From sequence record OL362271.1: 46,039 bases of DNA, one strand, 5' to 3'. This stretch comes from Klebsiella phage 6939. Positions 1,873 to 31,948 of the stretch are shown here, piece by piece. A program made the translations under genes and the position numbers. The notes under the pieces were generated by a model, which saw only the letters and a program-made list of their open reading frames with translations, was not told where the DNA came from and did no database searches. Positions within the stretch are counted from its first letter, which is position 1; every line of letters starts with the position of its first letter.

Positions 1873-1896
1873 AGTTAAGTTACACAATAGAAGCAG
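1873..1896 (+). promoter_or_regulatory. Phage RNAP promoter, SP6-like (agttaagttacacaatagaagcag)
   Basis: Matches a 21-nt motif repeated 8 times in the window, and is close to the SP6 consensus ATTTAGGTGACACTATAGAAG. Lies in the intergenic gap after the terminase gene. Confidence 0.6.
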
Positions 1897-2059
1897 CTAC
1901 AGTAAGTACAATAAGTAACCGTAAGCTACTGTAAGCTACTATAAGCTGTTGTTAGCTTATGTAAGCTCTTTAGGGAGGGATATATCTCTCCTTATATCCC
2001 TCTCTCTTTTATAGGAGAGAATAGAGTACCTTTATAAACTAAATAGGAGATATATAAGT

Positions 2060-2335
2060 ATGCGTCCAATTACTGGTGATAACGCTAAGTCTATTAATAC
2101 CGTTGCAATGTCCCTGACTAACATCGGTATCGTTAAGCAATCTGAGCTGGAGGATATTAACCACATGATTAATATCAACCAGTACTCTCAGAAGCAGAAT
2201 GGCTCTGTAGTTTGTGTATGGCTGACTGCTGGAGACTTTGCTCTTGCAATGGCACAGGGTACTGACCCTTCAGCTTCTTGGAAAGTGATGGGTGATACCA
2301 ACTCTACTCCAGTTACTGAAATCCAGCCAGCTTAA
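2060..2335 (+). CDS. Hypothetical protein, 91 aa, own promoter and terminator
   Basis: ORF with AGGAGA upstream, bracketed by the promoter at 1873 and the terminator at 2342. Confidence 0.5.
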   Translation: MRPITGDNAKSINTVAMSLTNIGIVKQSELEDINHMININQYSQKQNGSVVCVWLTAGDFALAMAQGTDPSASWKVMGDTNSTPVTEIQPA

Positions 2336-2341
2336 TAATCT

Positions 2342-2368
2342 AGCCCTCTTAATTGAGGGCTTAATTTT
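2342..2368 (+). terminator. Intrinsic terminator-like stem-loop (agccctc-ttaatt-gagggct + T-run)
   Basis: 7-bp GC-rich stem with a 6-nt loop followed by taatttt. Nearly identical to the hairpins at 33116 and 23507. Confidence 0.5.
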
Positions 2369-2920
2369 ATGAAGATGCTGATACTGCTATTTGCACTCAT
2401 AAACCCTGTTCATGCAACACAGCAAGGTTTATCGGTACACTTAGAAACCAAGGAGGTTAAGGAGATGAACAAACGTCAGTTCATCAAGTATGTCATTGAG
2501 CCTACACTCAAAAAGCTAGGTTTATACAGTGAGTCAGCTACTAACCTACTGGTTATGATTGCAGCTCATGAATCAATGAAAGGACACTATATTGTCCAGA
2601 CCACTGGTCAGGCCAAGGGGCTCTTCCAAATGGAAGATGCTACCCATGACTATCTACTTGCATGGGTCAAGTCAAACAAGCCAGAGCTTTATAAGCTTAT
2701 TGTAGCTATGGGTGACAATGAACCTTCAGCAATGAAGATGGTAACAGACCTTGATTACGCAACTGCAATGGCTCGTGTATTCTTCCTACGCTTCCCAGAA
2801 GCGCTACCGTCAGGTAGCGACACCGACGCAATGGCAGCTTACGCCAAGCTACGTTGGAACACTAAGTTAGGGAAAGCTACACCAGCTGACTACAAGAATG
2901 CTTATCTGTCATGGAAGTAA
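2369..2920 (+). CDS. Secreted lytic transglycosylase-like lysin (SLT motif ES...GLFQ) with N-terminal signal peptide
   Basis: N-terminus MKMLILLFALINPVHA looks like a Sec signal peptide. AAHES followed 14 aa later by GLFQM matches the family-1 lytic transglycosylase catalytic motif spacing. Confidence 0.5.
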   Translation: MKMLILLFALINPVHATQQGLSVHLETKEVKEMNKRQFIKYVIEPTLKKLGLYSESATNLLVMIAAHESMKGHYIVQTTGQAKGLFQMEDATHDYLLAWVKSNKPELYKLIVAMGDNEPSAMKMVTDLDYATAMARVFFLRFPEALPSGSDTDAMAAYAKLRWNTKLGKATPADYKNAYLSWK

Positions 2921-3037
2921 CTTGTAGTGAATGGTGTTTAGCTAAGTGGCAGGAAGCTATTGAGGCTGGTGATGACTCATCAGCTAATAACTATATGCAA
3001 CTCTATGAGTTGTGGTCATCTCGTGAAGGAGGAAAGA

Positions 3038-3535: not shown

Positions 3536-5518
3536 ATGGCTAAGCTAACACGGGTATCTCAACCACTTGTAAAAGGCTACCCAGAGTCAACACTAGATAA
3601 GCAATTTGGTTCATTTGTTACTATTGAGTCTTTCTTAGATAGGGCTAATGGAGTTACTGAAGATGCCCTTGATTTGGCAATTGCGTATTGTCGTGATAAT
3701 GACTGTAAAGTTATTAAGCTAGAGTCTGGTAAGCGCTATGTACTTACAAAGACTCATAAGGTATACAGTAACATCACAATTATTGGTGATAGGGATAACA
3801 GATGGAATCTAGGATCAACAAGTTATGGCCCACCTGTAGGTGAGAGAGCTGATGCAGATGACCCATTTGATAGCTCTTTCATCTGGAAAGGTGCACAAGG
3901 AACTACGTGGTTTGATTGTGATTACCAAGTATCTTTCATTGGTATTGTGTTTGGGGCACCAGACCAGAACTGGGCTGCTACAACTTATGAGCAACTCCTT
4001 GATTATGGTATCTGCATTAAATCGAAGACCAATACCTTTGTATCCAACTGTACATACTACGGGATGAGACAGTTTGTAGATGCTACTGGACAGAATCAGG
4101 TATTCATGGATAACTGTGGTGCAGCTAGGGATGCAGATTACACTATTCGTGACTCACGAGACACTAACTACATTATCAACTGCCATAGTAATCCCGGTAT
4201 CACACGAGTAGCACTAGAGTATGCAAAAGCTGTTATCAACGCAAACAGCGTACTTGTTGACTTAATCAACCATGATGGCACCAGTATCCAAAACTGCACG
4301 ACGTTTGCTAAGCGTCTTGTATGTCGTAATGTTAACAACAGTACTTACTTAGGTCATGTTAACTTGGATATTGGTTTCTTTGACCAAGTTGGTGCTATTG
4401 TCGATAATAACACAGCTACAGCCTCAGCTATCAATGCTAGCAACCTTACAGCTATTGGTGGCTCATCATCTAAGCTCGGTGACCCTGTTGGTTCTGATTC
4501 TGGATTCTTTATCCTGCGTAGACAAGGTGTTACTCAGATTGCATCTGTTAACTTAAGTAATCTTAACCTGACACTTGCAGCATCGCCACTTACTACCCAT
4601 CCTGCGTTCTTGCTTAACTTCCAGATTAGTGAAGCTTATGCAATCAACTTATCTCAAGTATCTTGCCAAGCTACTACAGATAATGGGGCTGGTGTATTCT
4701 GTGCAATCAACGGTAGTGTAATCCAAGCTGCAAATACTTATGTAGCTAATCCAGTAAGGGAGAACTTTATACCTAATGCTGGTTGGGGTTGGCGTCATCC
4801 AATCAACAGCAATCCACGTGGTTGGACTCTCACTAACGTAAGTGTTGAATCACAGGCATCTCGTAGAGTTACTTCATCAGCTACTGGTGGCTACATCGGT
4901 ACTAAGTTCCGTCAGCTACTGGCTGGTAGAACATACATCTTCACAGCAACCTCTATTGGCTCATCAACAGGTGTAGATGTATTAAGTACTAACGATGCAG
5001 GTACAACTACAACTACACACTACGACTGGGTTCGTAGAGGTGGTAAGTACTATGCAACTGGATACATCTCAACAGAAGCTCGTACCCATGAGGTTCGTAT
5101 TAACTGTGGTAACACAGGCTCCTCTGTAGTATTTGAGTATGCTGCATGTGTTCCCGGAAGCATTACAACTTATGGTGACTCATATAATGAACGTCCACCT
5201 AAGTCTACTAGTACAGGTTTATCATCCTATCAAGTAGCTCTTAATGGTGGTGTAGCTCATGAGGTTTATCCTGATTATGCAGGTAAAGCAGGTGCTTATA
5301 CTCTTTATCTGTCATCAGACCAAGGTGCAGCTATCTTCACTCTTGTGAAGGCTACACCAACTACAGCAGCTGTAATCAACTCTGTAGCTACATCTTATGT
5401 AGGTTCAGAGACCTACTCTGTTAGTTGGCCTGATAATAGTAATCCTAGGTTTAATACTTCTGTGTCAGCAACTGTTACCTTAACACTTGTTGGTGCTGCT
5501 TACATCAGTGATATGTAG
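3536..5518 (+). CDS. Tailspike protein (right-end, beta-helix / depolymerase-type)
   Basis: 660 aa, Asn/Ser/Thr/Gly-rich repetitive composition typical of parallel beta-helix tailspikes. Strong RBS AAGGAGAGAAAATG. Sits after the terminase, as in SP6/K1-5-like phages. Confidence 0.7.
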   Translation: MAKLTRVSQPLVKGYPESTLDKQFGSFVTIESFLDRANGVTEDALDLAIAYCRDNDCKVIKLESGKRYVLTKTHKVYSNITIIGDRDNRWNLGSTSYGPPVGERADADDPFDSSFIWKGAQGTTWFDCDYQVSFIGIVFGAPDQNWAATTYEQLLDYGICIKSKTNTFVSNCTYYGMRQFVDATGQNQVFMDNCGAARDADYTIRDSRDTNYIINCHSNPGITRVALEYAKAVINANSVLVDLINHDGTSIQNCTTFAKRLVCRNVNNSTYLGHVNLDIGFFDQVGAIVDNNTATASAINASNLTAIGGSSSKLGDPVGSDSGFFILRRQGVTQIASVNLSNLNLTLAASPLTTHPAFLLNFQISEAYAINLSQVSCQATTDNGAGVFCAINGSVIQAANTYVANPVRENFIPNAGWGWRHPINSNPRGWTLTNVSVESQASRRVTSSATGGYIGTKFRQLLAGRTYIFTATSIGSSTGVDVLSTNDAGTTTTTHYDWVRRGGKYYATGYISTEARTHEVRINCGNTGSSVVFEYAACVPGSITTYGDSYNERPPKSTSTGLSSYQVALNGGVAHEVYPDYAGKAGAYTLYLSSDQGAAIFTLVKATPTTAAVINSVATSYVGSETYSVSWPDNSNPRFNTSVSATVTLTLVGAAYISDM

Positions 5519-5520
5519 TT

Positions 5521-5676: not shown

Positions 5677-5851
5677 TTTGTCACCTAAGAAGTTTTATGA
5701 GCTTATGATAGCTCAAGGTAGATTCATGACCATTAAGAATGATTGGCTAGTACTTGAGCCAACTGATGGACTATCAGCTCAAGAGATTATTTATCTAGCT
5801 AGTCATGGTAAAGAGTTGAAGGAATACGTTAAAACACAAGAAGCATCGTAA
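5609..5851 (+). CDS. Hypothetical protein, 80 aa (possibly 3-prime part of a frameshifted gene)
   Basis: ORF of the six-frame track with no clear RBS of its own. Last ORF before the non-coding end region. Confidence 0.3.
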   Translation: MLSLRMFNVTPRSLRGLLALEVSLSPKKFYELMIAQGRFMTIKNDWLVLEPTDGLSAQEIIYLASHGKELKEYVKTQEAS

Positions 5852-6719
5852 ACCTAAGAAGCTTACAGCAAGCTGCATTTAGTATCAGGGGCACTCTGTT
5901 ACTGGATAGCAGGCTACAGTCAACTCAAGTAGTTGGCTAGGTAGCTACCTGTAAGCTCCCTAGGAGTTAGAAATAGGTTGTGCAAGTAGCATAGCTCCTG
6001 CCTGCCTGCGTCTGCGACGTCCCCCATCGGGGTAGCTGACAATAGCTAGCAGGAAGCTTGCAGGTACTATTCAACTAGTACACTAGCACGCTGTAGCGGC
6101 TGGAAGCTGGCTAGGAGCTGCCGTAAGTAACGTAAGCTGTTGATTGTGTACTACTGTACTAGTACGCTTGATGCAGCTACGTGAAATCTGTGCAAGCCAG
6201 CAGGGCTGACAGTCACAACTTGCAAGCACAATCACTTACTGTACTCATGAACTAGTACGCTAACCAGTAGCTCACAGCAGCTGGCTAGGTAGCTTGTATC
6301 AGTTGGCTAGTACATGCAGTAGTGATAGCAGCTTTGTAGGCTGTACTATTGTACTAGTACACGGCTAGTGAGTGGCTTGTAAGTTCTATGTACTAGTAAA
6401 TTAGTACACGGCTGGGTGTATCTGTCTTTTGTTCTACCTACTCACAACTAGCTTATGGGTAGCTTACGATAGACTTACAACCTAGCTTACAGAGGCTTAC
6501 TAGGTAGCTTACAGTAGCTGACTAGGTAACTGCTGATAGCTTACTAGGGAGTTGATGAGAGCTGACTAGGTAGCTTACAGAAGCTTTCTTTATCCGGTCT
6601 ATGAAAGACCGGAAAGAGATAAGTACGATGCTAATTAAGTTACATAATAAGAAGAGGCTGTACTCCACATACACAAGCCACTAAGCCTATAGGCTACCAA
6701 TAACTAACGAGGAACTAAC
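5852..6719. repeat. Non-coding genome-end region with short-repeat arrays (TAGCTTAC, GTACTAGTAC(GCT), GCTGACTAGGTAGCTTACAG)
   Basis: 868 bp with no ORF over 60 aa and dense direct and partially palindromic short repeats. By synteny this is where the terminal repeat and left-end leader of a T7/SP6-like genome sit. Confidence 0.6.
6633..6657 (+). promoter_or_regulatory. Degenerate phage-promoter-like motif (aattaagttacataataagaagagg)
   Basis: Shares AATTAAGTTACA and GAAGAG with the promoter family but has a disturbed -5 to +1 region. Preceded by a GC hairpin at 6593-6613. Confidence 0.3.
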
Positions 6720-6902
6720 ATGAGTGTCACTAGGAACCTAAGAAGAGTCTGCAACTACTGTACGTGGTACAGCAGTATCAACGAAGCTGTGAGTGCTGTT
6801 GTCTACCATAAGAAGCTTACAAGAGGACAGCGCAAGCAATGGTTAAGGCTACCAGCCAGGAAGCGCAAACAACTTGTTATTAAGCATAGAAAGCAATGGT
6901 AA
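6720..6902 (+). CDS. Early hypothetical basic protein, 60 aa
   Basis: First ORF after the end region, with GAGG upstream. Arg/Lys-rich. Confidence 0.4.
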   Translation: MSVTRNLRRVCNYCTWYSSINEAVSAVVYHKKLTRGQRKQWLRLPARKRKQLVIKHRKQW

Positions 6903-7830: not shown

Positions 7831-7912
7831 ACTGATAAGGCTGGCGTGAGCTAGCCTATCACTGATAACAACAGAGGTAAGCTTGATAGACTAACAACAG
7901 AGGTTAACTATC

Positions 7913-14701: not shown

Positions 14702-14733
14702 GGCGGTTCCTACGGGAGCCGCCTTTATTTTAT
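14702..14733 (+). terminator. Intrinsic terminator (ggcggttcc-tac-gggagccgcc + tttattttat), early-region terminator
   Basis: 9-bp GC-rich stem (one G-U pair) plus a 10-nt T-rich tract. Lies between the early/RNAP block and the replication block, like T7 TE. Confidence 0.7.
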
Positions 14734-14896: not shown

Positions 14897-14923
14897 TTAA
14901 TTAAGTGACGCAATAGAAGCAAT
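14897..14923 (+). promoter_or_regulatory. Phage RNAP promoter, SP6-like (attaattaagtgacgcaatagaagcaa)
   Basis: TAAGTGACGCAATAGAAG is closest of all copies to the SP6 consensus TTAGGTGACACTATAGAAG. Confidence 0.6.
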
Positions 14924-15023: not shown

Positions 15024-15043
15024 TTGTCTCCTATAAGAGACAA
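15024..15043. repeat. Palindromic element TTGTCTC-ctataa-GAGACAA
   Basis: Identical copy at the end of the second promoter-repeat module. Confidence 0.6.
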
Positions 15044-15085
15044 GATAAGTAGCACAATAGATTAATAAACCTATGGAGCTGTAAG

Positions 15086-15268: not shown

Positions 15269-17299
15269 ATGTCTGTAGTAATGAATCTGCCATGCCCTGA
15301 GTGTCAGAAGAATGGAGCTGACAAACGTGGTCAGTATCTTATGGTGTTTGAGGATGGCGGTAAGCTTTGTATCCATACACATAACCACGATAGCCGCGAG
15401 CGCTACTATGTAGCTCCTGATGGTAAAGATCCCGTATTCGATCGTGAGATTGATGGCAAGGTACAGTACAACGCAGCTCAGTTTAATCAGCTGGTAGCTG
15501 ATGGCAAGATTAAGGATGAGTTTACTAGGCAGCTAGCATTGTCTGGTATGCGCATGAAGGACAGGTACGAAGTCTTCACAGAAGAAGAGCGTAATCAGAT
15601 TGAGGCTGAGTGGGCTATGGATGTTGCATGGTTCGAGCAGCTAAGCTATCGCTCCTTGGAAGACCGAGCAATTCATGGAGCTATTGCCAAGTTCTATGAC
15701 GTGAGAGTAGGTCATGATGAGCATGGAAAGATTAATAGGCACTACTATCCAGTTCACACTCGTGAAGATATGTCACTAGTAGGTGCTAAAGCTCGTACAC
15801 TTCCAAAGGATTTTGCTTTCGGGCATCTTGGTAGAAGGTTTGGTGATGACTTAGCACTCTTTGGTATGCATACAACTCAGAAGGTGATGGACTCAGGAAC
15901 TTTCCGTAAGGGTAAGATGGGTAAGCTTCTTGTAGTCGGCGGTGAGTGTGATGCTATGGCAGCTCAACAGATGCTGGTTAAATCAATCAATAAGCTGGAT
16001 ACATTACAAGGTATTAAGTCTCTTGATGGGCTTAAGCTTGTACACGTATGGTCACCTACTAAGGGTGAGACTTGCTTGGATGAGATTGTAGCTAACCGTG
16101 AGTATCTTGATGCTTTCGAAGAGATTGTTTGGGGCTTTGACAATGATGATGTAGGCAACAAGCTTAACTTAGCATGTGCCAAGTTGTTCCGTCAGAAGAG
16201 TAAGTTTATTGTATACCCAAGCGGTTGCAAAGATGCTAACCAATGCCTCAAAGAAGGTAGAGATAAAGAGTTTGTTGATGCATGGTGGCAACCTGTGGAG
16301 GCTCGTGTCAAAGGTAAGCTTAAGGCAGCTTCTAGTTATGCTGACATTGCCAAGAAGATTACCAAGAACGGACTAAGTTACTTCATCCCAGAGCTCAACC
16401 CTATTACCTTTGGTGTACGCTTAAGCTACTTGGGTGTATGGGGAGCTGGTACAGGTGTTGGTAAGACAGAGATGACTACTAGTCACATCTGTAAGTTGAT
16501 AGAGCAGGGTAAGCCAGTTGTAGCAATCTACTTAGAGAACAGTCCTGATGAAGTTCTTAAGATGGTTGCCAGTCGCATAGCTAACAAGGACTTTATGAGT
16601 CCACCTTATGACCCAGATGACCCAGATGATGTTTACTCAGCATCTAGGGATTACACATGGCAAGAGTTAAGTGACACAATAGATGCTCTAGTTGCGTCTA
16701 ATCTCCTGTTCATACCAGAGCTTGAAGGGAGCAAGGATGTTACTGTCATTATGGAAGTAATGGAAGATGCGTTAGCTCTTGGTTACCAGTACTTTGTAGT
16801 AGATAACTTGACAGCTTTTGAACACCATGTAGATGGTAAAGTTCAAGTAGGTGTTAATGCTATTGATGAAACTATGAAACGTATGGGTACATTCAAAGAT
16901 GAGCATCCGGTTAATATCATGCTTCTTACTCACCTAACAAGACCAGAGAAGGGACGCATACCGCATGAGTTAGGTGGTGAGGTATTCATTACTGACTTCC
17001 GTGGTGCTGGCTCTATTAGCTTCTGGGCTAATGGTGCATGGGGTATTGAACGAAATACACAAGCAGCATCTATCCAAGACAAATGCACAACACTTATTCG
17101 TAACCTTAAGTCACGTGGTGTTGGTCATAAGGTTGGTAACACTGTAGTCATCAGGAAGATTCTTGACACTGGTGAGTATGAGGTACTGGATGGTGTTCAT
17201 GAGCTACCGCAAGTGGGTCGTGAGAAGAAAGACAAGCAGTCATCAGCTAGTAGGCAGATGGCAGATAATTTTATTGACGAAGCAGATGAGGAATTCTGA
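15269..17299 (+). CDS. DNA primase/helicase (T7 gp4-like)
   Basis: N-terminal Cys4 zinc ribbon (CPECQK...C..H), a TOPRIM region and a C-terminal helicase with Walker A GAGTGVGKT. Acidic C-terminus DEADEEF. Confidence 0.92.
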   Translation: MSVVMNLPCPECQKNGADKRGQYLMVFEDGGKLCIHTHNHDSRERYYVAPDGKDPVFDREIDGKVQYNAAQFNQLVADGKIKDEFTRQLALSGMRMKDRYEVFTEEERNQIEAEWAMDVAWFEQLSYRSLEDRAIHGAIAKFYDVRVGHDEHGKINRHYYPVHTREDMSLVGAKARTLPKDFAFGHLGRRFGDDLALFGMHTTQKVMDSGTFRKGKMGKLLVVGGECDAMAAQQMLVKSINKLDTLQGIKSLDGLKLVHVWSPTKGETCLDEIVANREYLDAFEEIVWGFDNDDVGNKLNLACAKLFRQKSKFIVYPSGCKDANQCLKEGRDKEFVDAWWQPVEARVKGKLKAASSYADIAKKITKNGLSYFIPELNPITFGVRLSYLGVWGAGTGVGKTEMTTSHICKLIEQGKPVVAIYLENSPDEVLKMVASRIANKDFMSPPYDPDDPDDVYSASRDYTWQELSDTIDALVASNLLFIPELEGSKDVTVIMEVMEDALALGYQYFVVDNLTAFEHHVDGKVQVGVNAIDETMKRMGTFKDEHPVNIMLLTHLTRPEKGRIPHELGGEVFITDFRGAGSISFWANGAWGIERNTQAASIQDKCTTLIRNLKSRGVGHKVGNTVVIRKILDTGEYEVLDGVHELPQVGREKKDKQSSASRQMADNFIDEADEEF

Positions 17300-19046: not shown

Positions 19047-21629
19047 ATGTTTAAATTCTGGCCTTTCATGTATGAAGATGGCAAGTCGCCACTAAGTGGT
19101 GTTGGTCGCTTCTTGGTAGCTGATATTGAGTCTCGTGGCTTACTTCGAGTTACCAGAGAGGCTAGCGATTTGCATATTATTACTATTGAAGATTATTTCA
19201 CAGGTGAGCAGTTCGTATTTTTCGATCCCTATGAGAAGCGTAAGAATCCTACAGAGCTACCAACTTGGGAAGGTGACCAAGATGGCTATATAGCTGATGG
19301 GGTTAAGATGCTTATGGAGGCTGAAGGTCTTAGCTTCCAGAACGCCGTAGGGTTTGATGGACTTGTACTAGAGAGATGCTTCCCTTGGTTCAAGTTTGAT
19401 TGGTTAGGTTCTCGTAAGCACAAGAAGCATACAGACATCTTCCCATTCAACCACATGGATACAATGGTTGTCAGTCAGCTTACATATCCTGACCGTCCAC
19501 TTGACCATAAGGCTTACAGCTTAGGCCTTGGTAACACAGGTGCGCATAGTATCGCAGCTCATGGTATCCGCATGGGTCGCCATAAGCCAGAGCATGAGGA
19601 TTGGTCAACCCTCACAGAAGATATGATTCACCGTAACCGAGAGGACGTTTCAATCGGTAAGGATTACTTACGGTATCTGATGGAGGGTGATTGGGCTGAC
19701 CAAGTTGCCAGAGGTGCTAACAAGCATACTGGTTTCACAATCCATGAAGCTTACAGAATGGAACAGCAAGTAGCTTTCATGATTGCACGTCAGGAGCAGC
19801 GTGGTTTCCGGTTTGATATGCATCAAGCTTGGGAAGACTACAAAACTATTGATAGTGACATGGAATCTATTAGCGCAGCTGTAGAGCCGTACATACCATT
19901 GAGACTTGTGACTGACCCATACAACTTCCAGAGGCTTAAGCAGCGTTATGATTCTGCTATCAAGAATCTTGACATAAGCCACTGGGGTGTTTGGTTCAAG
20001 CTCAATAAAGATGAGTACCTTAAAGGTATCTTCAATGAGATTCACAGGACTATGAGTATGAAGTCAGAGGACTTTAAACGCATTGGTACTTGTGCAACTC
20101 AATGGAAGCTTACAACAGCTAAGGGTGACTGGAGCAAGGCACTACAGAAAGTATACCCAGAGATGCGTGGCAACATTAATGATACACCAGACCCTCTGGT
20201 AGCTGGGCCATTCACACCCTTAACATTTGAGCAGCTGGGCTTAGGTTCTCTTGATTATGTCAAGGAGAAAGTTCTATGGCCTCGTGGTTGGATTGGAATC
20301 AACTACTCTGATTCAGAAGAGGAATGGATTAACGAGCATGGTGAACCTCGTTACCCTTGGTCTGGTAAGATTGATGATGACTCACTGAAAGCTTGGAAGA
20401 ACAGACAAGAGATACCAGAGTGGGCTGAGAAGATAGTTAACTACTATATCTTACGTTCACGCCGTTCAGTTATTGTGAACAAAGGTGACATTGAGAAGTT
20501 CAATAAGAATGGTGAGTGGCCTAAGCAGAAGAACGGTAAGCATGAATGTCGTGGCTTGCTGGCAGTTGCCTATAACAAAGAGTATGACCTAACAGGTGGA
20601 GAGTACTATGCTAAGTTTAAGGAGTGGCCTACCTCCGATGAAGAAGAGTGGCGTGTACCTGCTGCTGCTTTCTCCATTGGAACGAATACGTTCCGTATGC
20701 GACACAGGTTTGTTGTCAACATACCAGCACGTGGACTATTCCCACTACGCCATCTATTTATCGCTCGCAAAGGCTACAAGATACTTGGATGTGACGGGGC
20801 AGGGCTTGAGCTACGAATGCTTGCACACTTTATGGCAGATGCTGTCTACCAAGAGATTATACTGCATGGCGACATCCATACACACAACCAGCTCAAGGCA
20901 GGATTGCCTACACGAGATATGGCGAAGACTTTCATATACGCATTTCTCTATGGCTCAGGTGTTGGTGGACTCGCTAGATTGGCTGGCATTACCATTGCTG
21001 AAATGGAATCTTGCATATCAAGATTTAAAGCAGAACTTCCAGCACTGGCAACACTGATTGACCGATGTGAGCAAGCTGGTCGTAAGTTTGGTTATCTCCA
21101 AGCTATTGATGGTCGCTGGGGTCGTATCCGTAAGAAGGGTGGCAAGCTTATTATGCACACTGCACTTAACGTGTTGCTTCAGATGACTGGCTCATTAGTC
21201 ATGAAGTATGGTGAGTGCATCGCTGAAGACAATATGATTAAGGAAGGAGTAGCACTTGATGAGTTTGGGTATCCAGCTTTCGTGGCTAACGTACATGATG
21301 AAGTACAAATGGAAGTGCCTGAAGATGAAGTTGATAGCATGGAGTATGAGCTTGCATATACTCTTGAAGGTTTCCCTGATGAACGGAAAGCTATCAAAGC
21401 TGTTTGGGATGTGGAAGAGAAACGCGCACACACAGATGAGCAAGGTAGAAAGTGGAGTGCTCCTTGTAAGCTTAGCGCTGCTGATGGGGTCATTCGTGTT
21501 AGCAGGAGTTATCATCGAGCTGGTCACATACTTATGGACGCTTTCGAAGCTGCTGGGGTAATGTTCAAGATGCGGTGCCCTCTTGCTGGTGAATATAAGG
21601 TGGGTAATAGTTGGGCTGATACACACTAA
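19047..21629 (+). CDS. DNA polymerase (family A, T7 gp5-like) with 3-prime to 5-prime exonuclease domain
   Basis: Exo I motif LVADIES, motif A DGAGLELR, motif B RDMAKTFIYAFLYG and motif C VHDEVQ. Confidence 0.93.
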   Translation: MFKFWPFMYEDGKSPLSGVGRFLVADIESRGLLRVTREASDLHIITIEDYFTGEQFVFFDPYEKRKNPTELPTWEGDQDGYIADGVKMLMEAEGLSFQNAVGFDGLVLERCFPWFKFDWLGSRKHKKHTDIFPFNHMDTMVVSQLTYPDRPLDHKAYSLGLGNTGAHSIAAHGIRMGRHKPEHEDWSTLTEDMIHRNREDVSIGKDYLRYLMEGDWADQVARGANKHTGFTIHEAYRMEQQVAFMIARQEQRGFRFDMHQAWEDYKTIDSDMESISAAVEPYIPLRLVTDPYNFQRLKQRYDSAIKNLDISHWGVWFKLNKDEYLKGIFNEIHRTMSMKSEDFKRIGTCATQWKLTTAKGDWSKALQKVYPEMRGNINDTPDPLVAGPFTPLTFEQLGLGSLDYVKEKVLWPRGWIGINYSDSEEEWINEHGEPRYPWSGKIDDDSLKAWKNRQEIPEWAEKIVNYYILRSRRSVIVNKGDIEKFNKNGEWPKQKNGKHECRGLLAVAYNKEYDLTGGEYYAKFKEWPTSDEEEWRVPAAAFSIGTNTFRMRHRFVVNIPARGLFPLRHLFIARKGYKILGCDGAGLELRMLAHFMADAVYQEIILHGDIHTHNQLKAGLPTRDMAKTFIYAFLYGSGVGGLARLAGITIAEMESCISRFKAELPALATLIDRCEQAGRKFGYLQAIDGRWGRIRKKGGKLIMHTALNVLLQMTGSLVMKYGECIAEDNMIKEGVALDEFGYPAFVANVHDEVQMEVPEDEVDSMEYELAYTLEGFPDERKAIKAVWDVEEKRAHTDEQGRKWSAPCKLSAADGVIRVSRSYHRAGHILMDAFEAAGVMFKMRCPLAGEYKVGNSWADTH

Positions 21630-21650
21630 TAAAGTTACACAATAGGTATA
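21627..21650 (+). promoter_or_regulatory. Phage RNAP promoter, SP6-like (taataaagttacacaataggtata)
   Basis: Copy of the promoter motif immediately after the DNAP stop. Confidence 0.55.
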
Positions 21651-22926: not shown

Positions 22927-22950
22927 AATAAAGTTACACAATAGATATAT
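22927..22950 (+). promoter_or_regulatory. Phage RNAP promoter, SP6-like (aataaagttacacaatagatatat)
   Basis: Copy of the promoter motif directly after the palindrome at 22906-22925. Confidence 0.55.
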
Positions 22951-22963: not shown

Positions 22964-23056
22964 ATGTCAGTACGCTGGGAGATTACACATACTGGTCGCG
23001 CGGCCAATGTGGGCTGGGGTTTCTGGATACACGCTGCTGACTTAACCTTCAATTAA
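22964..23056 (+). CDS. Possible 30-aa micro-ORF in a locally GC-rich island between tandem promoters
   Basis: AAGGTGA N6 ATG start context. Product MSVRWEITHTGRAANVGWGFWIHAADLTFN. Could equally be a structured leader. Confidence 0.2.
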   Translation: MSVRWEITHTGRAANVGWGFWIHAADLTFN

Positions 23057-23073
23057 GTTACACAATAGATATA
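23051..23073 (+). promoter_or_regulatory. Phage RNAP promoter, SP6-like (aattaagttacacaatagatata)
   Basis: Best match to the in-window consensus. 124 bp downstream of the previous promoter. Confidence 0.6.
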
Positions 23074-23467: not shown

Positions 23468-23537
23468 GTTCCTACCTATAGAGGTATTACTATAGGAACC
23501 TACATGCCCTACTCATAGCGAGTAGGGCTTATTTTTG
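23468..23537 (+). terminator. Double stem-loop: large hairpin (gttccta...taggaac) plus intrinsic terminator (gccctactc-atagc-gagtagggc + ttatttttgtt)
   Basis: 9-bp GC stem plus T-run. The upstream hairpin has a 7-bp stem and a large loop, a possible RNase III site. Confidence 0.7.
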
Positions 23538-23549
23538 TTAGGAGGGACT

Positions 23550-24984: not shown

Positions 24985-26109
24985 TTGAAGATTACAGAAG
25001 ACGCACTTAAGGAAGATATTGCAGCTGGCAAAACTAACAAGGAGATTGCTGAGAAGCATGGGTGCTCTGAAAGGAACATCCAGTATCGCCGGAAGCGTCT
25101 AGCTGAGAAAGGCTTTTCCCCTCCACATGATATGGTGAAAGAAGTAGCTCCCGGTTTCCTACTGAAAGGTACATCAACCTTATATAAGAATGGTGAGCCT
25201 GTGTTGCAGTGGGTTAAAACTAAGGTTGACCCAGAGCGTATGTTGCAGATGGCTCAGGAGTTCCTTGCTGGTATCAATGATGACATCCAGCGAGCAGAAC
25301 CTGTAGCAGCACCATACAACAAGCAAGCTGACCATCTACTTAACTTCTTCCCTATTACAGATTACCACTTAGGTATGCTGGCTTGGGCTGAAGAATCTGG
25401 AGATGACTGGGATATGAAGATTGCTGAGGACTTAGCAACTCGCTGGCTTGAGCGAGCTATTGCAAGCTCACCACATGCTAACACAGCAATCTTAGCTAAC
25501 ATGGGCGACTTCCTTCACTGGGATGGACTGGCAGCAGTAACACCAGCATCTAAGCATGTTCTGGATGCTGACACTCGTTACACTAAACTTGTGCGAGTTG
25601 CTGTTAAGCTTATTCGTAAGATGATTCAGATGTGTCTGGAGACTCACCAGAAAGTGCATGTAGTTATGGCAGAAGGTAACCATGATGAAGCAAGCTCTGT
25701 GTGGCTACGTGAGACACTGAAGGTTATCTATGAGAATGAGCCACGTATCACAATTGATGATAACCCAGACCCTTACTACTGCTATGAGTTTGGTAACACT
25801 GCAATCTTTATCCATCATGGACACAAACGTAGAGCTGAGCAAATTGACCAAGTTCTTGCAGCTAAGTTCCGTAAGGTCTTTGGACGTACAGAACATGCGT
25901 ATGCTCACGTAGGTCACTTGCATCACTTGAAAGCTATTGAGACTAGCCTGATGGTTGTAGAACAGCATCGTACACTTGCAGCTAAGGATGCTTATGCTAG
26001 TCGTGGTGGTTGGTTATCAGAGCGAGCAGCTTCAGTGATCACTTACCATAGTGAGTATGGAGAAGTTCAGCGAGCCACTATTACACCAGCTATGTTGTTA
26101 GATAAGTAA
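24985..26109 (+). CDS. HTH domain fused to calcineurin-like metallophosphoesterase (SbcD/Mre11-type motif set)
   Basis: TTG start 5 nt after AGGAGG. N-terminal HTH (KTNKEIAEKHGCSERNIQYRRKRL). Motifs DYH, GDFLHWDG, GNHDE, HHGH and GHLHH match phosphoesterase motifs I-V. Confidence 0.65.
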   Translation: MKITEDALKEDIAAGKTNKEIAEKHGCSERNIQYRRKRLAEKGFSPPHDMVKEVAPGFLLKGTSTLYKNGEPVLQWVKTKVDPERMLQMAQEFLAGINDDIQRAEPVAAPYNKQADHLLNFFPITDYHLGMLAWAEESGDDWDMKIAEDLATRWLERAIASSPHANTAILANMGDFLHWDGLAAVTPASKHVLDADTRYTKLVRVAVKLIRKMIQMCLETHQKVHVVMAEGNHDEASSVWLRETLKVIYENEPRITIDDNPDPYYCYEFGNTAIFIHHGHKRRAEQIDQVLAAKFRKVFGRTEHAYAHVGHLHHLKAIETSLMVVEQHRTLAAKDAYASRGGWLSERAASVITYHSEYGEVQRATITPAMLLDK

Positions 26110-26122
26110 CACAATAGAACTA
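26100..26122 (+). promoter_or_regulatory. Phage RNAP promoter, SP6-like (agataagtaacacaatagaacta), overlapping the upstream stop codon
   Basis: One mismatch to the in-window consensus core TAAGTTACACAATAGAAG. Confidence 0.5.
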
Positions 26123-26129
26123 ATTAACT

Positions 26130-26726: not shown

Positions 26727-27136
26727 GGAAGATTTGCACTTGTTCCAAGAAGACTGGTATCGAATACGGTACATCTAATGGACATGCATTAGATTGTGCT
26801 ACCAACATGACTGATGAGGAACTTGGCCTTAAGCCACTAGGTGCTAAATATGATGCTGGTAAACCGCGAGTTGATTTGCTGATTGATGGTTGTCCATTGT
26901 CACTTGAGGAAGTATCTAAGGTACTCACATTTGGTGCTAAGAAATATGCAGACCACAACTGGCAGCATGTACCGGATGGTGAGACTCGATATAAAGCTGC
27001 AATGATGCGTCATGTACTAGCATCTTCTCGTGGTGAGAAAACTGACAGCGAGACTGGTTTAAGTCACTTAGCTCATGCAGCTTGCTGTATCTTATTCATG
27101 CTTGAGTTGGAGCTAAAGAAGAATGAACGTATTTGA
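26723..27136 (+). CDS. Hypothetical protein, 137 aa (weak guess: nucleotide pyrophosphohydrolase-like)
   Basis: ATGA overlap. Motif GAKYDAGKPRVDLL...FGAKKYADHNW recalled by eye only. No firm assignment. Confidence 0.4.
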   Translation: MRKICTCSKKTGIEYGTSNGHALDCATNMTDEELGLKPLGAKYDAGKPRVDLLIDGCPLSLEEVSKVLTFGAKKYADHNWQHVPDGETRYKAAMMRHVLASSRGEKTDSETGLSHLAHAACCILFMLELELKKNERI

Positions 27137-28058: not shown

Positions 28059-28425
28059 TAAGCGTGTTAACATTTTAACAGGTGAAGAGTGTCCACTTGG
28101 CACTATTCCTAATGAACGATGTTCTGGCAGGACTCTATCTATTGCGCTCAGTTTACTTGCAGTGGCTATGTCTAGTGAGTTTAGACATCACTTTCTGATT
28201 GATCATGCTGGAGATGAGCGAAGGCATGCCGACAACCTCCGATATGAAGTTCTTGGGTTAATCAGTCAAGCTAAGTTGATAGGGTTCAAAGTAGAGGTAC
28301 GCTCTACTCACAGTCTTCGTGGGATGAAAGGTCTATCAGGGCTTTATGGCTATAGCTGCGAATCCTATGGTGTATATGTCAGCTGGGATCAGGTTCAGGA
28401 TGTTTACTATGACCTACGCAAATAA
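28033..28425 (+). CDS. Hypothetical protein, 130 aa
   Basis: ATG after GAGGAAGAGAG, overlapping the ligase end. Confidence 0.4.
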   Translation: MTKLPQTISKRVNILTGEECPLGTIPNERCSGRTLSIALSLLAVAMSSEFRHHFLIDHAGDERRHADNLRYEVLGLISQAKLIGFKVEVRSTHSLRGMKGLSGLYGYSCESYGVYVSWDQVQDVYYDLRK

Positions 28426-28603
28426 AGAGGAAGCTCTTGAAGCTGCTGCTGAGATGGCACTTGACGGACGCTTACCTACACCTGATGAGTTTGCAGAAAT
28501 GCAAGCAGTTGGTGTTGATTACAAGGCAGTTCATTCAATCTTAAGTGAGGTGTTCTACGATGGTGAAGAGTTCGAAGATTCATCCGATGCCGAGTCCGAG
28601 TGA
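28400..28603 (+). CDS. Hypothetical acidic protein, 67 aa
   Basis: In-frame ATGs at 28400 and 28409. Acidic C-terminus DGEEFEDSSDAESE. Confidence 0.3.
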   Translation: MFTMTYANKEEALEAAAEMALDGRLPTPDEFAEMQAVGVDYKAVHSILSEVFYDGEEFEDSSDAESE

Positions 28604-28757
28604 CGTTGCTTACATTGAGCCGGGTGTGTTTGATTACATCATGGATGTTTTGCGTGAGAAGCAAGTAAGCTACAGCAGCCCACAAGCTGACTTCATCTAC
28701 AATGAAGTTGTTAAGGATGTAAGGAAGCGTATTGCATGCAGCATCAAACCAAAGTAA
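28587..28757 (+). CDS. Hypothetical protein, 56 aa
   Basis: Overlapping small ORF with a weak RBS. Confidence 0.25.
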   Translation: MPSPSDVAYIEPGVFDYIMDVLREKQVSYSSPQADFIYNEVVKDVRKRIACSIKPK

Positions 28758-29200
28758 GGAAAGCTACGATACTTGACTTGCTACCAGTAGCTTTGTTAGC
28801 TGATAAGTACTCTAGTGAAGTTAATACAATGGATAATCATCCTCTTTGCATCGAGACACTCATGCAGAATATGGCAGCTACTCTAATGTCACCAGATGGT
28901 TACATGAGCTTGCTAGAAGTTGATGGTAAGATTGTTGGTGGTTTGTGGGGTATCTTAACTAATCAGCCTTGGTCAGCAACTAAGTTTGCACAGGATGTAA
29001 TAATCTTTGTTGATTCATCACATCGCAATGGAAGCGGATTGTTGCTTATCAAGGACTGGATTAAGTGGGCGAAAGATAAAGGTGCAAAGGAAGTGTACCT
29101 AAGTACAGCCTCTGGTATAGGTACTGAGAGGTTTATTAGGCTCGCTGGTAAATTAGGATTTGAGCCAGTTGGTCACGGATTCAAGAAGGAGGTGTATTGA
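28736..29200 (+). CDS. GNAT-fold acetyltransferase-like protein
   Basis: AAGGA upstream. VDGKIVGG...HRNGSGLLL...AKDKGAKEVYL resembles the GNAT acetyl-CoA-binding core. Confidence 0.4.
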   Translation: MQHQTKVRKATILDLLPVALLADKYSSEVNTMDNHPLCIETLMQNMAATLMSPDGYMSLLEVDGKIVGGLWGILTNQPWSATKFAQDVIIFVDSSHRNGSGLLLIKDWIKWAKDKGAKEVYLSTASGIGTERFIRLAGKLGFEPVGHGFKKEVY

Positions 29201-29397
29201 TGTCATTTTCAAAACCAAAGGTTCCAGCATACAACCCGCCAGCTGCTAAGCCTGACCGCCAAGTAGATGTTGAACCAGAAGATGTACAGCTGGGTGATGA
29301 GGACAGCCAGACAACGACTAAGAAAGGTAAGCGCTCCTTGATGCGTCCTTCCGGTGCAGCTACTGGTACTGGTGGCGGTACTGGCTTAAGCGTCTAA
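29197..29397 (+). CDS. Small protein, 66 aa, before portal (T7 gp6.7/7.3 position)
   Basis: ATGA overlap. Gly/Thr-rich C-terminus. Confidence 0.4.
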   Translation: MMSFSKPKVPAYNPPAAKPDRQVDVEPEDVQLGDEDSQTTTKKGKRSLMRPSGAATGTGGGTGLSV

Positions 29398-29406
29398 GGA
29401 GGTTAG

Positions 29407-31011
29407 ATGAAGGGTAATAAGATTCTAACTGTAGGTGATGAAGATTTATCATCCTTCAATAACCGGATGCAGGTTAAGCCCGGTGCTCCTAACAAAGAGT
29501 CACTGGAAGCTCAGTATTCCGGTATGAAGGGTAAGCGAGAGGTTTTCCTATCAAGAGCTAAAGCTCTTACTAAACTCACACTACCAGCTCTGTTTACTGA
29601 CTCCAGTGATACCTTTGACCAAGGACAGGGTTACACACAAAATGGATGGCAGAGCTTAGGTGCTCAGGGTCACACGCATTTAGCTAACAAGCTTGCACAA
29701 ACTTGGTTCCCTCCACAGAGAACTTTCTTTAAGCTCACGTTTACTGATGAGATGAAGAAAGCTTTGTACAGTGAGGGTGTTAAAGAAACTGATTTAATGC
29801 AGCAGCTATCATCAGCTGAGCAGAGGGCACAACTTTATCATACTCAGGTTCAGGGTTATCTAGCATGGGTAAATGCTGCTGAGCATCTTATTGGCTCAGG
29901 GAATGCCATGCTGTATATGCCACCAGATGACGAGAATGTAGTTTGCTACCCTATGGATAGGTATGTAGTTTCTCGTTCTAAGTCAGGTAAAGTACTCAAG
30001 ATGATTCTTGAGGAAGAGAAAGCTATCAGTGAGTTTGAGCCAGCTGTACAAGCTATTATTAAGGCCAAGAGATATGGCTGCAAGAAGTCAGATACAATCC
30101 CTGTTTATACTTGCATGAAGTGGGATGGTGTTGAGAAGAAGTACTCTATCTGGTCTGAGGTTGTGGAAGTTCAGATAACCAAGACATTTAAAGTTACACA
30201 AGAGAATAACCCATTCATTATTCTTGGATGGAAGTTCCTATATGGAGAGGCATACGCTCGTGGCTTACTTGAAGTTATTGCAGGTGACTTGTTCGTCTAT
30301 CAGTTCCTGTCAAAAGCCATAGCTAAGGGTTGCGCTTTGATGAGTGAGGTTAAGTTCCTTGTTCGTCGTGGTTCAGCTACTAGCCCGGAGGCACATGCTA
30401 AAGCTGAATCTGGTGAGTATGTCTATGGTGATGAGGGCGATATTAGTGTTGTCCAGTTAGATAAATATGCTGACTATCAAACTGTATCTAGTGTAATGCA
30501 GATTTATGAACGTCGCATAGGTCAGGCATTCTTGATGAGTTCAGCCACTCGTAGGGATGCAGAGCGTGTAACTACCGTAGAGATTAGACAAGATGCTATG
30601 GAGCTTGAGACAACTCTTGGTGGTACTTACTCACAGATTGCTGTTAATGGTCAGCTACCTTATGCGCGTTTACTGTTACGTCGCATCAAGTTCAAGGTTG
30701 GCGAGAGGGATGTAGTCCCAGTTATTGTTACAGGCATAGAAGCTCTTGGTAAAGCTGGTGAGCTTGATAAGCTTGTGCAGTTCTCTGAGATGATGGCAAT
30801 CCCTAATGGATGGTCACCAGAGGCTCAAGCAAGGATGAAGTGGTCAGACTATATGACCATGATTGCATCTAACCTCAACATGGAAGCTCCTTGGCTGATG
30901 ACAGAAGATGAGTATGCTAAGAAGCTACAGGCACAACAACAGCAGCAACAGCAGCAAGCGATGCTTGAAGCAGCTAGTAAGGCTGCACCACAGATGATGA
31001 AAGGAGAGTAG
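29407..31011 (+). CDS. Portal (head-tail connector) protein, T7 gp8-like
   Basis: 534 aa, TAAGGAGGTTAGATG start context, located upstream of scaffold and capsid. Poly-Gln C-terminal tail. Confidence 0.88.
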   Translation: MKGNKILTVGDEDLSSFNNRMQVKPGAPNKESLEAQYSGMKGKREVFLSRAKALTKLTLPALFTDSSDTFDQGQGYTQNGWQSLGAQGHTHLANKLAQTWFPPQRTFFKLTFTDEMKKALYSEGVKETDLMQQLSSAEQRAQLYHTQVQGYLAWVNAAEHLIGSGNAMLYMPPDDENVVCYPMDRYVVSRSKSGKVLKMILEEEKAISEFEPAVQAIIKAKRYGCKKSDTIPVYTCMKWDGVEKKYSIWSEVVEVQITKTFKVTQENNPFIILGWKFLYGEAYARGLLEVIAGDLFVYQFLSKAIAKGCALMSEVKFLVRRGSATSPEAHAKAESGEYVYGDEGDISVVQLDKYADYQTVSSVMQIYERRIGQAFLMSSATRRDAERVTTVEIRQDAMELETTLGGTYSQIAVNGQLPYARLLLRRIKFKVGERDVVPVIVTGIEALGKAGELDKLVQFSEMMAIPNGWSPEAQARMKWSDYMTMIASNLNMEAPWLMTEDEYAKKLQAQQQQQQQQAMLEAASKAAPQMMKGE

Positions 31012-31015
31012 TTAA

Positions 31016-31927
31016 ATGTCTGGTATTGAAATTTTGGCAGTAGGGGAGCAAGCTCAGGAAGAGTATGAGCAGAAGCAACAGGAAGCTAACAACAATGGTA
31101 CTAACGGTAACTTGAGTACTGCACCTGAAGATACTGAACAAGCTCCAGAGACTACCACAACTCAGGAGGGTGGTGAGCAATCTGTAGAGCAAGAAGAGGA
31201 TGGCGATAAGAAGCCTGAAGCTACAGAAGAATCAGAAGAGGAAGATGGCTTTTACTTTGGTGATACTAAGGTAGAGATTGAAGTTCCCACTGAAATCTCT
31301 GAAGCCCTCAAAGGTGCTAAGATTGATGAGGGTCAGCTGCTCAAGGAGCTGTTTGCAAAGGATGGTAAGTTTGAGGTTTCTGAGAAAACCAAAGCAGCTT
31401 TGGATAAAGCATTTGGTAAGCAGATGGTTGATGGCTACCTGAACTTGTTCCGCCAGCAGAACCAGATGGCACTGGATTCTTATAAGAAGGAACTTGCTGA
31501 TACAGCTGCACAGATTGAGGTCAACACTAAAGACTTCAATGAACTTGTAGGTGGTGATGAAGGTTGGAATGAGTTAGATGCTTGGGCTAGTGAGCATCTT
31601 GATGATGCACAACTGGCTCAGTTTAATGCAGTTATGAGTCTACCAGCAGAGCACTATCAAGCTCAGCGAGCTGTGGTGGAAGCTCTTCAGCTTAAGCGTG
31701 ATGCTCAGATTAAAGCTGCTGAAGGTGACCAGTCTGTTACGCTGCCTACTGATGGCGCTGGTGAATCTAATCGTTCCAATTCTGGGGCTCTGCCAGCCTC
31801 TCTGTCACGTGCTGAATTCCAAGAGCTGATGTTTAGCGAGCGTTATAAGAAAGACGCTCAGTACGCTCAGCAGGTGGATAAAATCCGAGAAATGACAATC
31901 AAGCGTGAGCAGTCTCAGCGCCGTTAA
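31016..31927 (+). CDS. Capsid assembly (scaffolding) protein, T7 gp9-like
   Basis: 303 aa, very acidic Glu/Asp/Gln-rich helical protein between portal and capsid. Confidence 0.8.
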   Translation: MSGIEILAVGEQAQEEYEQKQQEANNNGTNGNLSTAPEDTEQAPETTTTQEGGEQSVEQEEDGDKKPEATEESEEEDGFYFGDTKVEIEVPTEISEALKGAKIDEGQLLKELFAKDGKFEVSEKTKAALDKAFGKQMVDGYLNLFRQQNQMALDSYKKELADTAAQIEVNTKDFNELVGGDEGWNELDAWASEHLDDAQLAQFNAVMSLPAEHYQAQRAVVEALQLKRDAQIKAAEGDQSVTLPTDGAGESNRSNSGALPASLSRAEFQELMFSERYKKDAQYAQQVDKIREMTIKREQSQRR

Positions 31928-31948
31928 TAAAGTTACACAATAGAATGC
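31927..31948 (+). promoter_or_regulatory. Phage RNAP promoter, SP6-like (ataaagttacacaatagaatgc), upstream of the capsid gene
   Basis: Copy of the promoter motif, followed by a leader hairpin tgcagatgaca...tgtctgca (31944-31968). Confidence 0.6.

Follow-up and report, generated by a model that had tools for sequence, protein, structure and literature searches.

SP6-like promoters predicted for the single-subunit RNA polymerase of Klebsiella phage 6939

A 20-base motif recurs on the + strand of the genome sequence of Klebsiella phage 6939 (record OL362271.1; the whole stretch analysed, 46,039 nucleotides (nt), is called the window), and this motif is very probably the promoter of the single-subunit RNA polymerase (RNAP) that the phage encodes at 11159-13843. 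The support is computational and comprises motif statistics, strand bias, conservation, synteny, co-variation with the polymerase and an intact polymerase, and in all sequence-based features examined the motif agreed with membership in the T7-family polymerase promoters. Eight copies were predicted as promoters with confidence (1875, 14901, 16667, 21630, 22929, 23053, 26102 and 31928), and three weaker but conserved copies (15045, 40098 and a +1-A variant, 6635) were considered borderline. Each site is named by one position, and its span is given as -17 to +4 around the predicted start.

Copies of the motif and their conservation

A preliminary description of this DNA had listed eight copies on the + strand, and the motif was present at all eight positions and always on that strand. 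Through a search for the 19-mer TTAAGTTACACAATAGAAG with at most three mismatches, eight matches were obtained, all on the + strand, against 0.02 expected, and none of 100 shuffled sequences reached even two matches. This match set was different from the listed one, as it included 16667 and 30189 and left out the copies at 6633 and 21627, which are in a slightly different register or more degenerate.

The first weight matrix showed three tiers: nine sites at 24.6-33.7 bits, then 15045, 40098 and 6635 at 17.9-20.6 bits, and noise at 10.4 bits or below; the top match on the - strand had 8.2 bits. Because circularity was to be avoided, a second matrix (22 nt) was trained solely on the seven clean copies of the preliminary description. 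It gave eight + strand sites at 24.7-30.5 bits and retrieved copies that had been unlisted or degenerate: 16667 (27.3 bits), 40098 (20.6), 6635 (18.8), 15045 (17.3) and 30189 (14.9). The next match had 13.1 bits, and the best on the - strand about 9.0-10.6 bits. In 200 dinucleotide-preserving shuffles, scored on both strands, the maxima averaged 13.4 bits (standard deviation 1.9) and the highest was 18.7 bits. No - strand family was found with the weight matrices, the best score there being 8-11 bits; the check proposed earlier, whether random positions or the - strand would match as well, gave no such match. The candidate sites are as follows.

1873..1893, + strand: promoter 1875; predicted start G 1890; no mismatches; 30.5 bits (28.6 leave-one-out)
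6633..6654, + strand: promoter-like +1-A variant 6635, ACATAATA-A-GAAG; 17.4-18.8 bits, borderline
14899..14919, + strand: promoter 14901; predicted start G 14916; two mismatches; 27.5 bits (23.8 leave-one-out)
15043..15063, + strand: weaker promoter 15045, GATAAGTAGCACAATAGATTA; predicted start 15060; 17.3-19.0 bits; intergenic
16665..16685, + strand: strong promoter 16667, within the primase/helicase gene (15269-17299); predicted start 16682; two mismatches; 27.3 bits untrained
21628..21648, + strand: promoter 21630, overlapping the stop codon of the DNA polymerase gene; predicted start 21645; 27.6 bits (24.4 leave-one-out)
22927..22947, + strand: promoter 22929, first of a tandem pair; predicted start 22944; 29.8 bits (28.1 leave-one-out)
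23051..23071, + strand: promoter 23053, second of the tandem pair; predicted start 23068; 30.2 bits (28.5 leave-one-out)
26100..26120, + strand: promoter 26102, containing the stop codon of the open reading frame (ORF) 24985-26109; predicted start 26117; 24.7 bits (19.0 leave-one-out)
30187..30207, + strand: doubtful match 30189, TAAAGTTACACAAGAGAAT, inside the portal gene
31926..31946, + strand: promoter 31928, before the major capsid gene; predicted start 31943; 28.2 bits (25.1 leave-one-out)
40096..40116, + strand: weak candidate promoter 40098, inside the internal virion protein gene; predicted start 40113; 19.9-20.6 bits

As a census of the family the earlier list of eight was wrong in membership: 16667, 15045 and 40098 had been missed, and 6633 is the +1 variant. 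Its statement that every copy is intergenic or overlaps a stop codon holds for the eight listed but not for the family, in which 16667 and 40098 are intragenic. A strong ribosome-binding site had been described after every copy; we found a Shine-Dalgarno sequence and start codon within about 15-60 nt of 21630, 23053, 26102 and 31928, but the next start is about 170-185 nt away from 1875, 14901 and 22929.

The nearest records in the phage collection are Klebsiella phage KL01 and Ralstonia phage Reminis, with 82.8% and 79.3% nucleotide identity over the RNAP gene, and the next closest are the Gajwadongviruses ECBP5 and PP99. When KL01 and Reminis were scanned with the window matrix, 11 of the 12 candidates were found at syntenic places, the exception being 30189. 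At 1875, 21630, 22929 and 23053 the motif forms an island of conservation, with 17-20 of 20 bases kept where the flanks are 6-76% identical: 18-19/20 against flanks of 0.74-0.76 for 1875; 19/20 against 0.69 (KL01) and 0.06 (Reminis) for 21630; and 17-18/20 for 22929 and 18-20/20 for 23053, both against 0.43-0.44. All 20 bases of 15045 (KL01 15306, Reminis 15021) and of 26102 are conserved in both phages. The counterparts of 1875 are KL01 1891 and Reminis 635, those of 14901 are KL01 15164 and Reminis 14878, and those of 31928 are KL01 32093 and Reminis 31718. The site 40098 scores just over the shuffle maximum and has syntenic copies at KL01 40275 (14.2 bits) and Reminis 39899 (22.2 bits); no counterpart was found in Nufs112 or PP99.

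The match at 30189 was rejected as a true promoter, with 14.2-14.9 bits untrained, within the shuffle range, and no counterpart in the KL01 and Reminis scans. It was dropped as a conserved promoter because its motif (13-14/20) is less conserved than its coding flanks (0.83-0.86).

The same site map was found in the window, KL01, Reminis, Nufs112 and PP99/ECBP5, and for the most part in SP6 and K1-5, for which the promoter positions were derived in this analysis. The shared sites are listed here with their equivalents.

After the terminase large subunit gene: 1875; SP6 37773, PP99 39796, Nufs112 40745
Past the RNAP block: 14901; SP6 6118, ECBP5 6155, Nufs112 9292
Past the RNAP block, second site: 15045; SP6 6287, PP99 8305, Nufs112 9867
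Within the primase/helicase gene: 16667; SP6 8411, located elsewhere in that gene
After the DNA polymerase gene: 21630; SP6 12542, PP99 15122, Nufs112 16174
Usual tandem pair before the next small ORF: 22929/23053; also in KL01 and Reminis; Nufs112 17048/17150, PP99 16327/16413
Across the stop of the exonuclease/phosphoesterase-like gene, with the kinase gene next: 26102; SP6 17428, PP99 19500, Nufs112 20263
Before the major capsid gene: 31928; SP6 22413, PP99 25518, Nufs112 25768

The intragenic site 16667 gave the clearest single line of evidence. Its homologous codon position is conserved in six phages (the window, KL01, Reminis, Nufs112, PP99 and ECBP5). In the window, KL01, Reminis and Nufs112 the core is read in frame as ACA ATA GAT (Thr-Ile-Asp) at nt 1407 of the primase/helicase gene, and PP99 and ECBP5 have the same codons at the homologous place. 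Upstream of the core, at -12 to -7, two codons follow the lineage: the window clade has AGT GAC (Ser-Asp), Nufs112 has TCC CTC (Ser-Leu) and PP99 has GAC GCT (Asp-Ala). In each lineage this codon pair equals that lineage's own promoter block, with the amino acids changing (SD, SL, DA). The protein thus appears to yield in order to keep a promoter that fits the lineage, which would be hard to explain unless 16667 were used. Intragenic promoters are normal in the T7 family, for example T7 phi4c in gene 4.

The RNA polymerase and promoter recognition

The predicted reader of the motif is the product of the following gene.

11159-13843, + strand: T7-family single-subunit RNA polymerase, 894 amino acids (Pfam RNA_pol PF00940, 3e-91; RPOL_N, 3.5e-18)

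Its residues D559, K643, Y651, H824 and D825 correspond to T7 D537, K631, Y639, H811 and D812, and the alignment shows no variation at any of them. Ahead of the gene, 13 nt before the start codon, a GC-rich hairpin whose tail contains T (GGCGGCTCACAGTAGCCGCC TTAACTTTAT) was observed at 11117-11146; KL01 and Reminis have kept it, and expression of the RNAP may be attenuated by it.

Of the 20 positions between -16 and +4, the window consensus shares 16 with the SP6 promoter ATTTAGGTGACACTATAGAAG; those at -16, -12, -9 and -4 differ, so the earlier remark that only a few positions differ was correct. The two promoters have the same length and register, and ACAC at -8 to -5, ATA at -3 to -1 and the GAAG start are identical. 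The window has A for T at -4 in all 12 candidate copies, A for G at -12, and T, sometimes G or A, for G at -9, where G was found only in 14901 and 16667. A strict SP6 promoter would have T at -4 and G at -9; because of the A at -4 in every copy and the T at -9 in most copies, the motif is called SP6-like and not SP6. The window clade, Nufs112 and the Gajwadongviruses PP99/ECBP5 all have the ACAATAG core and its A at -4, and the A at -4 is therefore a trait of the clade level. A specificity that is SP6-like but distinct, as had been suggested, is supported by the 16/20 match and a diverged recognition loop; the A at -4, offered as its distinguishing mark, is clade-wide and does not serve as one.

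The lineages differ at -12 to -7, where the block is AGTTAC in the window clade, ACCCTC in Nufs112, GGCACT in PP99 and GGTGAC in SP6. It is the specificity loop that reads this block in T7. We took the loop as the segment aligned to T7 739-770, at about residues 755-785 of the window protein, and compared its identity to the window with that of the whole protein.

KL01 and Reminis: loop 26/29; whole protein 90% and 88%
L011, Nufs112-like, with promoter ATTAWCMCTCACAATAGA: loop 17/29; whole protein 78%
PP99, with promoter ATTAGGCACTACAATAGG: loop 11/29; whole protein 69%
SP6: loop 9/29; whole protein 45%
T7: loop 5/29; whole protein 35%

In relatives with another consensus the loop diverges beyond the rest of the protein, and it matches the conservation of the rest only in KL01 and Reminis, which share the window's consensus. 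The comparison with the SP6 loop, proposed earlier as a check, showed divergence in step with the -12 to -7 block. Over four lineages and four blocks, the loop co-varied with -12 to -7, in qualitative terms only.

For T7, specificity has been assigned to the hydrogen-bonding loop residues R746, N748, R756 and Q758, and the key bases are positions 6-10 of the promoter alignment (PMC11880802). The residue equivalent to N748 is K in the window and R in SP6, and both promoters have G-T at -11/-10. PP99 shares N with T7, and G stands at -11 in both promoters. In Nufs112 the residue is D, the same as in T3 (D749), and the Nufs112 promoter from -16 to -5 (ATTAACCCTCAC) is that of T3. It is suggestive, by analogy with T7, that this residue tracks the bases at -11/-10. 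The Nufs112 case looks like convergence between SP6-like and T3 polymerase-promoter pairs. Nufs112-type promoters ATTAACCCTCACAATAGA were seen near 9292, 11508, 16174, 17048, 17150, 20263, 25768 and 40745 of Nufs112, and also in L011.

At RNAP residues of about 83-90 there is an insertion of eight amino acids, SKVNPETG, where T7 has its AT-rich recognition loop (T7 93-101). The insertion is present in KL01, Reminis and Nufs112/L011 and missing in PP99, ECBP5, SP6, K1-5 and T7. In T7 the AT-rich recognition loop reads -17 to -13. The bases ATTA at -16 to -13 are identical with or without the insertion.

Several points weigh against the promoter reading or its details. The residue-to-base reading has been carried over from T7 across an alignment with a 3-residue gap, and SP6- and K1E-type polymerases are reported to deviate from the T7 co-variation rules (PMC11880802, Zhu et al.); because of both, the residue-level assignments are treated as inference. 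The weaker sites score 17-21 bits against the shuffle maximum of 18.7 bits, near the best shuffled sequences. These three sites depend chiefly on conservation, which inside genes may be partly due to coding constraint. The match at 30189 shows that near-consensus matches can occur without conservation. Binding, start sites and relative strengths are predictions made from the DNA sequence, and the start at G is placed by analogy with SP6.

Transcription units and comparison with known phages

From the genes identified with Pfam and PHROGs, the window is taken to be a circularly permuted record of an SP6-like Autographiviridae genome with the SP6-type gene order. The + strand carries nearly all long ORFs, and the GC skew is steadily positive along the window. 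In a paper on Pantoea phage Nufs112, OL362271 has been described as having a 769-amino-acid tail fibre, and in that work it was re-cut to start at base 6000 so as to fit the Nufs112 termini (PMC9915841). The genes needed for the transcription map are these.

1-1848, running past the window start: terminase large subunit (Pfam/PHROGs)
3536-5518, + strand: ORF of 660 amino acids, in the place of the tail spike as judged from synteny with PP99
15269-17299, + strand: primase/helicase (Pfam/PHROGs)
19047-21629, + strand: family A DNA polymerase, stop codon 21627-21629 (Pfam/PHROGs)
26130-26726, + strand: polynucleotide kinase (kinase/phosphatase; PHROG polynucleotide kinase, 1.4e-59)
29407-31011, + strand: portal (Pfam/PHROGs)
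32005-33108, + strand: major head (capsid) protein (PHROG, 5e-70)
39003-42866, + strand: internal virion protein, 1287 amino acids (Pfam/PHROGs)
42876-45185, + strand: ORF of 769 amino acids

Four hairpins followed by T-rich tails were found at places where units could end.

14702..14733, + strand: early-region hairpin and T-run terminator; 9-bp stem with 7 GC pairs, then TTTATTTTAT; -19.8 kcal/mol, z -5.25
23506..23538, + strand: hairpin and T-run terminator after ORF 23127-23465; -17.1 kcal/mol, z -5.26
33116..33145, + strand: hairpin and T-run terminator directly 3' of the major capsid gene; -15.7 kcal/mol, z -4.44
2342..2371, + strand: hairpin with T-rich tail, 3' of the first ORF in the 1875 unit; -13.3 kcal/mol, z -3.78

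Together they span -13 to -20 kcal/mol with z scores of -3.8 to -5.3, and their stems pair in spite of sequence change in KL01, Reminis, Nufs112 and PP99, with the tail GGGCTTATTTTTGTTAGGA retained. The terminator at 14702 separates the RNAP block from the first phage promoter downstream, and it is kept in KL01 and Reminis. The stem at 23506 varies in sequence yet pairs in KL01, Reminis and Nufs112, the tail GGGCTTATTTTTGTT being retained. The post-capsid terminator at 33116 was found in KL01, Reminis and PP99; the PP99 stem is different but pairing, and its tail CTTATTTTTGTTAGGA is identical. The hairpin at 2342 is kept in KL01 and Reminis and is probably a partial terminator.

In genome order, with the left end near 6000, every strong site lies past the RNAP gene and the 14702 terminator, and the early region has only the +1-A variant 6635 of the family. 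We propose that host RNA polymerase would transcribe the early region from about 6700 to the 14702 terminator, yielding the phage polymerase. The latter would bind the approximately 20-bp ATTAAGT(T/G)ACACAATA, melt AATA, start at the G of GAAG, GATA or GAAT and proceed rightward.

The first unit would begin at 14901 and 15045 and serve the primase/helicase gene. The former is the first phage promoter past the early terminator, and the latter stands 26 nt ahead of an ORF of 57 amino acids and the primase/helicase gene. The next unit would start at 16667, and that of 21630 would drive ORFs 21681-22025 and 22115-22903. The tandem pair 22929/23053 lies ahead of ORF 23127-23465 (phrog_4429), and its unit would extend to 23506. 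The ligase, portal and scaffold genes have 26102, ahead of the polynucleotide kinase/phosphatase gene, as the last strong promoter in front of them, and its unit would cover the kinase and these three. From 31928 the capsid gene would be transcribed, and 33116 would stop or attenuate this unit. Genes for the tail, internal virion, tail fibre and terminase proteins would depend on read-through past the post-capsid terminator, with 40098 possibly boosting it. The unit of 1875, which directly follows the terminase large subunit gene, would drive a small ORF, the lysis genes and the 660-amino-acid ORF 3536-5518, on to the right end. The hairpin-plus-U terminators at 23506, 33116 and 2342 would end or attenuate units.

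The preliminary description had stated that the promoters define the transcription units; they give the unit starts, but the terminators supply the other half. Its suggestion of read-through for the portal, tail and terminase genes agrees with our map, which lacks a further strong site from 26102 to 31928 and from 31928 to 1875 and has the conserved terminator after the capsid gene, a position that T7 and SP6 share.

The +1-A variant 6635 is located at the genome left end, upstream of the first early ORF (6720-6902), and may be a weak, A-initiating promoter ahead of the early genes. Its extra A is retained at KL01 7025, Reminis 6050, PP99 460 and ECBP5 43489, and similar variants, 'TATAAGA' or 'CACTATAAGA', occur in the early regions of SP6 (2104) and K1-5 (2014).

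SP6, a Zindervirus, provides the closest known plan. Its promoters, 12 according to PMC11880802, are all co-directional with the genes as in the window. Between 22413 and 37773 SP6 has only the weak internal site 29393, which is mirrored by the window. SP6 also has a promoter, 39910, before the gene in the tail spike position; in the window no above-noise site was found between 1875 and 6635, that is, none before ORF 3536-5518 such as SP6 and K1-5 have. The window polymerase differs from that of SP6 by the eight-residue insertion.

PP99/ECBP5 (TTAGGCACTACAATAGGNA) share with the window the ACAATAG core, the A at -4 and the ATTA at -16 to -13, and have at least nine sites positioned as in the window, including the in-frame primase/helicase site and a left-end 'AATAAGAA' variant. 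They differ by GGCACT instead of AGTTAC at -12 to -7 and by starting with GG instead of GA. Ten promoters have been predicted in PP99 with PHIRE (PMC6989608). Promoter mining with PhageProm was without result for ECBP5 (PMC11880802), and because of this failure we consider the clade poorly covered by present tools. Nufs112 and the IMG/VR contig L011 have the same ACAATAGA core and the same site map as the window, and their RNAP, 78% identical to that of the window, has the same insertion; their -12 to -7 block is T3-like (ACCCTC). The Nufs112/L011 promoters were identified in this analysis and are not mentioned in the Nufs112 paper (PMC9915841).

T7 of Teseptimavirus and T3 of Teetrevirus, with about 10-17 copies of a 23-bp phage promoter, follow the same plan: host polymerase transcribes as far as an early terminator and so supplies the early genes and the RNAP, the capsid gene has a strong promoter in front and a terminator behind, later genes are reached by read-through, some promoters are intragenic, and origin-associated promoters stand after the RNAP gene and near both ends. 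Compared with the window, their promoter is unlike at most positions upstream of -5 and the polymerase is 35% identical; the window has the SP6-type order, with the lysis and tail spike genes after the terminase gene.

The word 'promoter' is absent from the KL01 paper and the Nufs112 paper (PMC9915841), and a literature search for the motif string GTTACACAATAG returned no papers. No published description of the window-clade consensus was found, and the kind of promoter is itself well known. A promoter family is ordinary and expected for such phages and would be no surprise to specialists. The result is a predicted transcription map for phage 6939 and its clade (KL01, Reminis) which is useful for annotation. 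The window clade, Nufs112 and the Gajwadongviruses also form a natural series, with polymerases 69-90% identical and a shared ACAATAG core, that reads three different -12 to -7 blocks, one of them identical to that of T3. This series is a compact test set for promoter reading by SP6-type polymerases and a possible source of orthogonal polymerase-promoter pairs.

Other readings of the motif, repeats and genome ends

Three of the sites, 1875, 14901 and 6635, might function primarily as replication-origin promoters like T7 phiOR, phi1.1A/B and phiOL, a role that would be additive to the promoter reading and that we propose only tentatively. The leaders 1895-2012 and 14920-15025, following 1875 and 14901, are conserved non-coding stretches of about 130 nt in which repeats precede a CT-rich hairpin. 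The repeats, tandem and of a 10-bp CTGTAAGCTA type, occupy 1895-1967 (7.4 copies) and 14938-14966, and the hairpin at 1972-2005 has -19.7 kcal/mol. The same repeat-hairpin module also follows the post-terminase and post-RNAP promoters of KL01, Reminis, Nufs112 and PP99/ECBP5. An inverted 10-mer array with a 22-bp period (6450-6586) lies just upstream of 6635, and GTAAGCT is over-represented in the window, with 44 occurrences against 11.4 expected. In the T3 record the primary origin is annotated right after the first post-RNAP promoter, and the positions of 1875, 14901 and 6635 correspond to T7 phiOR, phi1.1A/B and phiOL (Dunn and Studier 1983). Against this, none of the SP6-like phages compared here has a mapped origin, and the repeats could be elements of the 5' untranslated region, end-proximal repeats like those of T7, or packaging signals.

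A palindrome, TTGTCTC-N6-GAGACAA, was found in six copies of 20 nt each (6946, 14787, 15024, 17772, 22906 and 40329), where 0.01 strand-matches were expected. Syntenic copies number seven in KL01, six in Reminis and two in Nufs112, and PP99, ECBP5 and SP6 have none. Two of the copies end 1-3 nt short of the upstream edges of promoters 15045 and 22929; that at 22929 is the TTGTCTCCTATAAGAGACAA palindrome immediately upstream of the site. As RNA it would form a weak hairpin of -8 kcal/mol without a U tail. The palindrome may serve a dimeric DNA-binding protein as its operator, or it may be a hairpin for RNA ends or processing. A further layer of control at the level of DNA, with the palindrome as the operator of a dimeric phage regulator gating certain promoters and, separately, 1875, 14901 and 6635 as origins, is conceivable but unlikely in our judgement; we know of no such layer in T7-like phages.

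That the 20-base motif itself is a site for something else, such as a regulator operator or an RNA processing, packaging or recombination signal, is very improbable. In phages, operators can take the form of short conserved repeats between genes, and the palindrome above may well be one, but the motif is non-palindromic and strictly unidirectional with the genes. Its 16/20 match to the SP6 promoter includes the entire -8 to +4 core except -4, and it varies between lineages at the bases where T7-family polymerases read promoters, in step with the specificity loop.

Even less credit is given to the reading as a variant host promoter of the sigma-70 type, in which TTACAC would stand in for the -35 element. 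TTACAC matches TTGACA at 4 of 6 bases, and host polymerase must transcribe part of the genome; however, no conserved -10 hexamer is present 16-18 nt past TTACAC, the copies have no conservation among them past +4, and the sites stand downstream of the RNAP gene behind the early terminator, like promoters of a phage polymerase. A sigma-70 scan reported none of the sites, and the sigma-70 reading of the motif was rejected. A chance or compositional repeat, which is how the 30189 near-match behaves, is refuted for the family by its excess over expectation, its restriction to one strand and its conserved islands in relatives.

No Rfam family was found in the window at the gathering thresholds, and no tRNA. 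A repeat-rich non-coding stretch at 5850-6700 contains five TGTACTAGTACAC-type units (6063-6413) and several CTAGGTAGCTTACAG units, and it probably holds the physical genome ends as a collapsed terminal repeat; in Nufs112, where the ends have been mapped, there are direct terminal repeats of 410 bp. In the early region, repeat units TGATAGGCTTACTTAAC / AGCCTATCA... are located upstream of successive small ORFs, at 7115-7141, 7374-7392, 7494-7519, 7853-7909 and 8064-8081. Picked up poorly by a simple sigma-70 scan, these units are possibly early promoters of the host polymerase or their regulatory sites.

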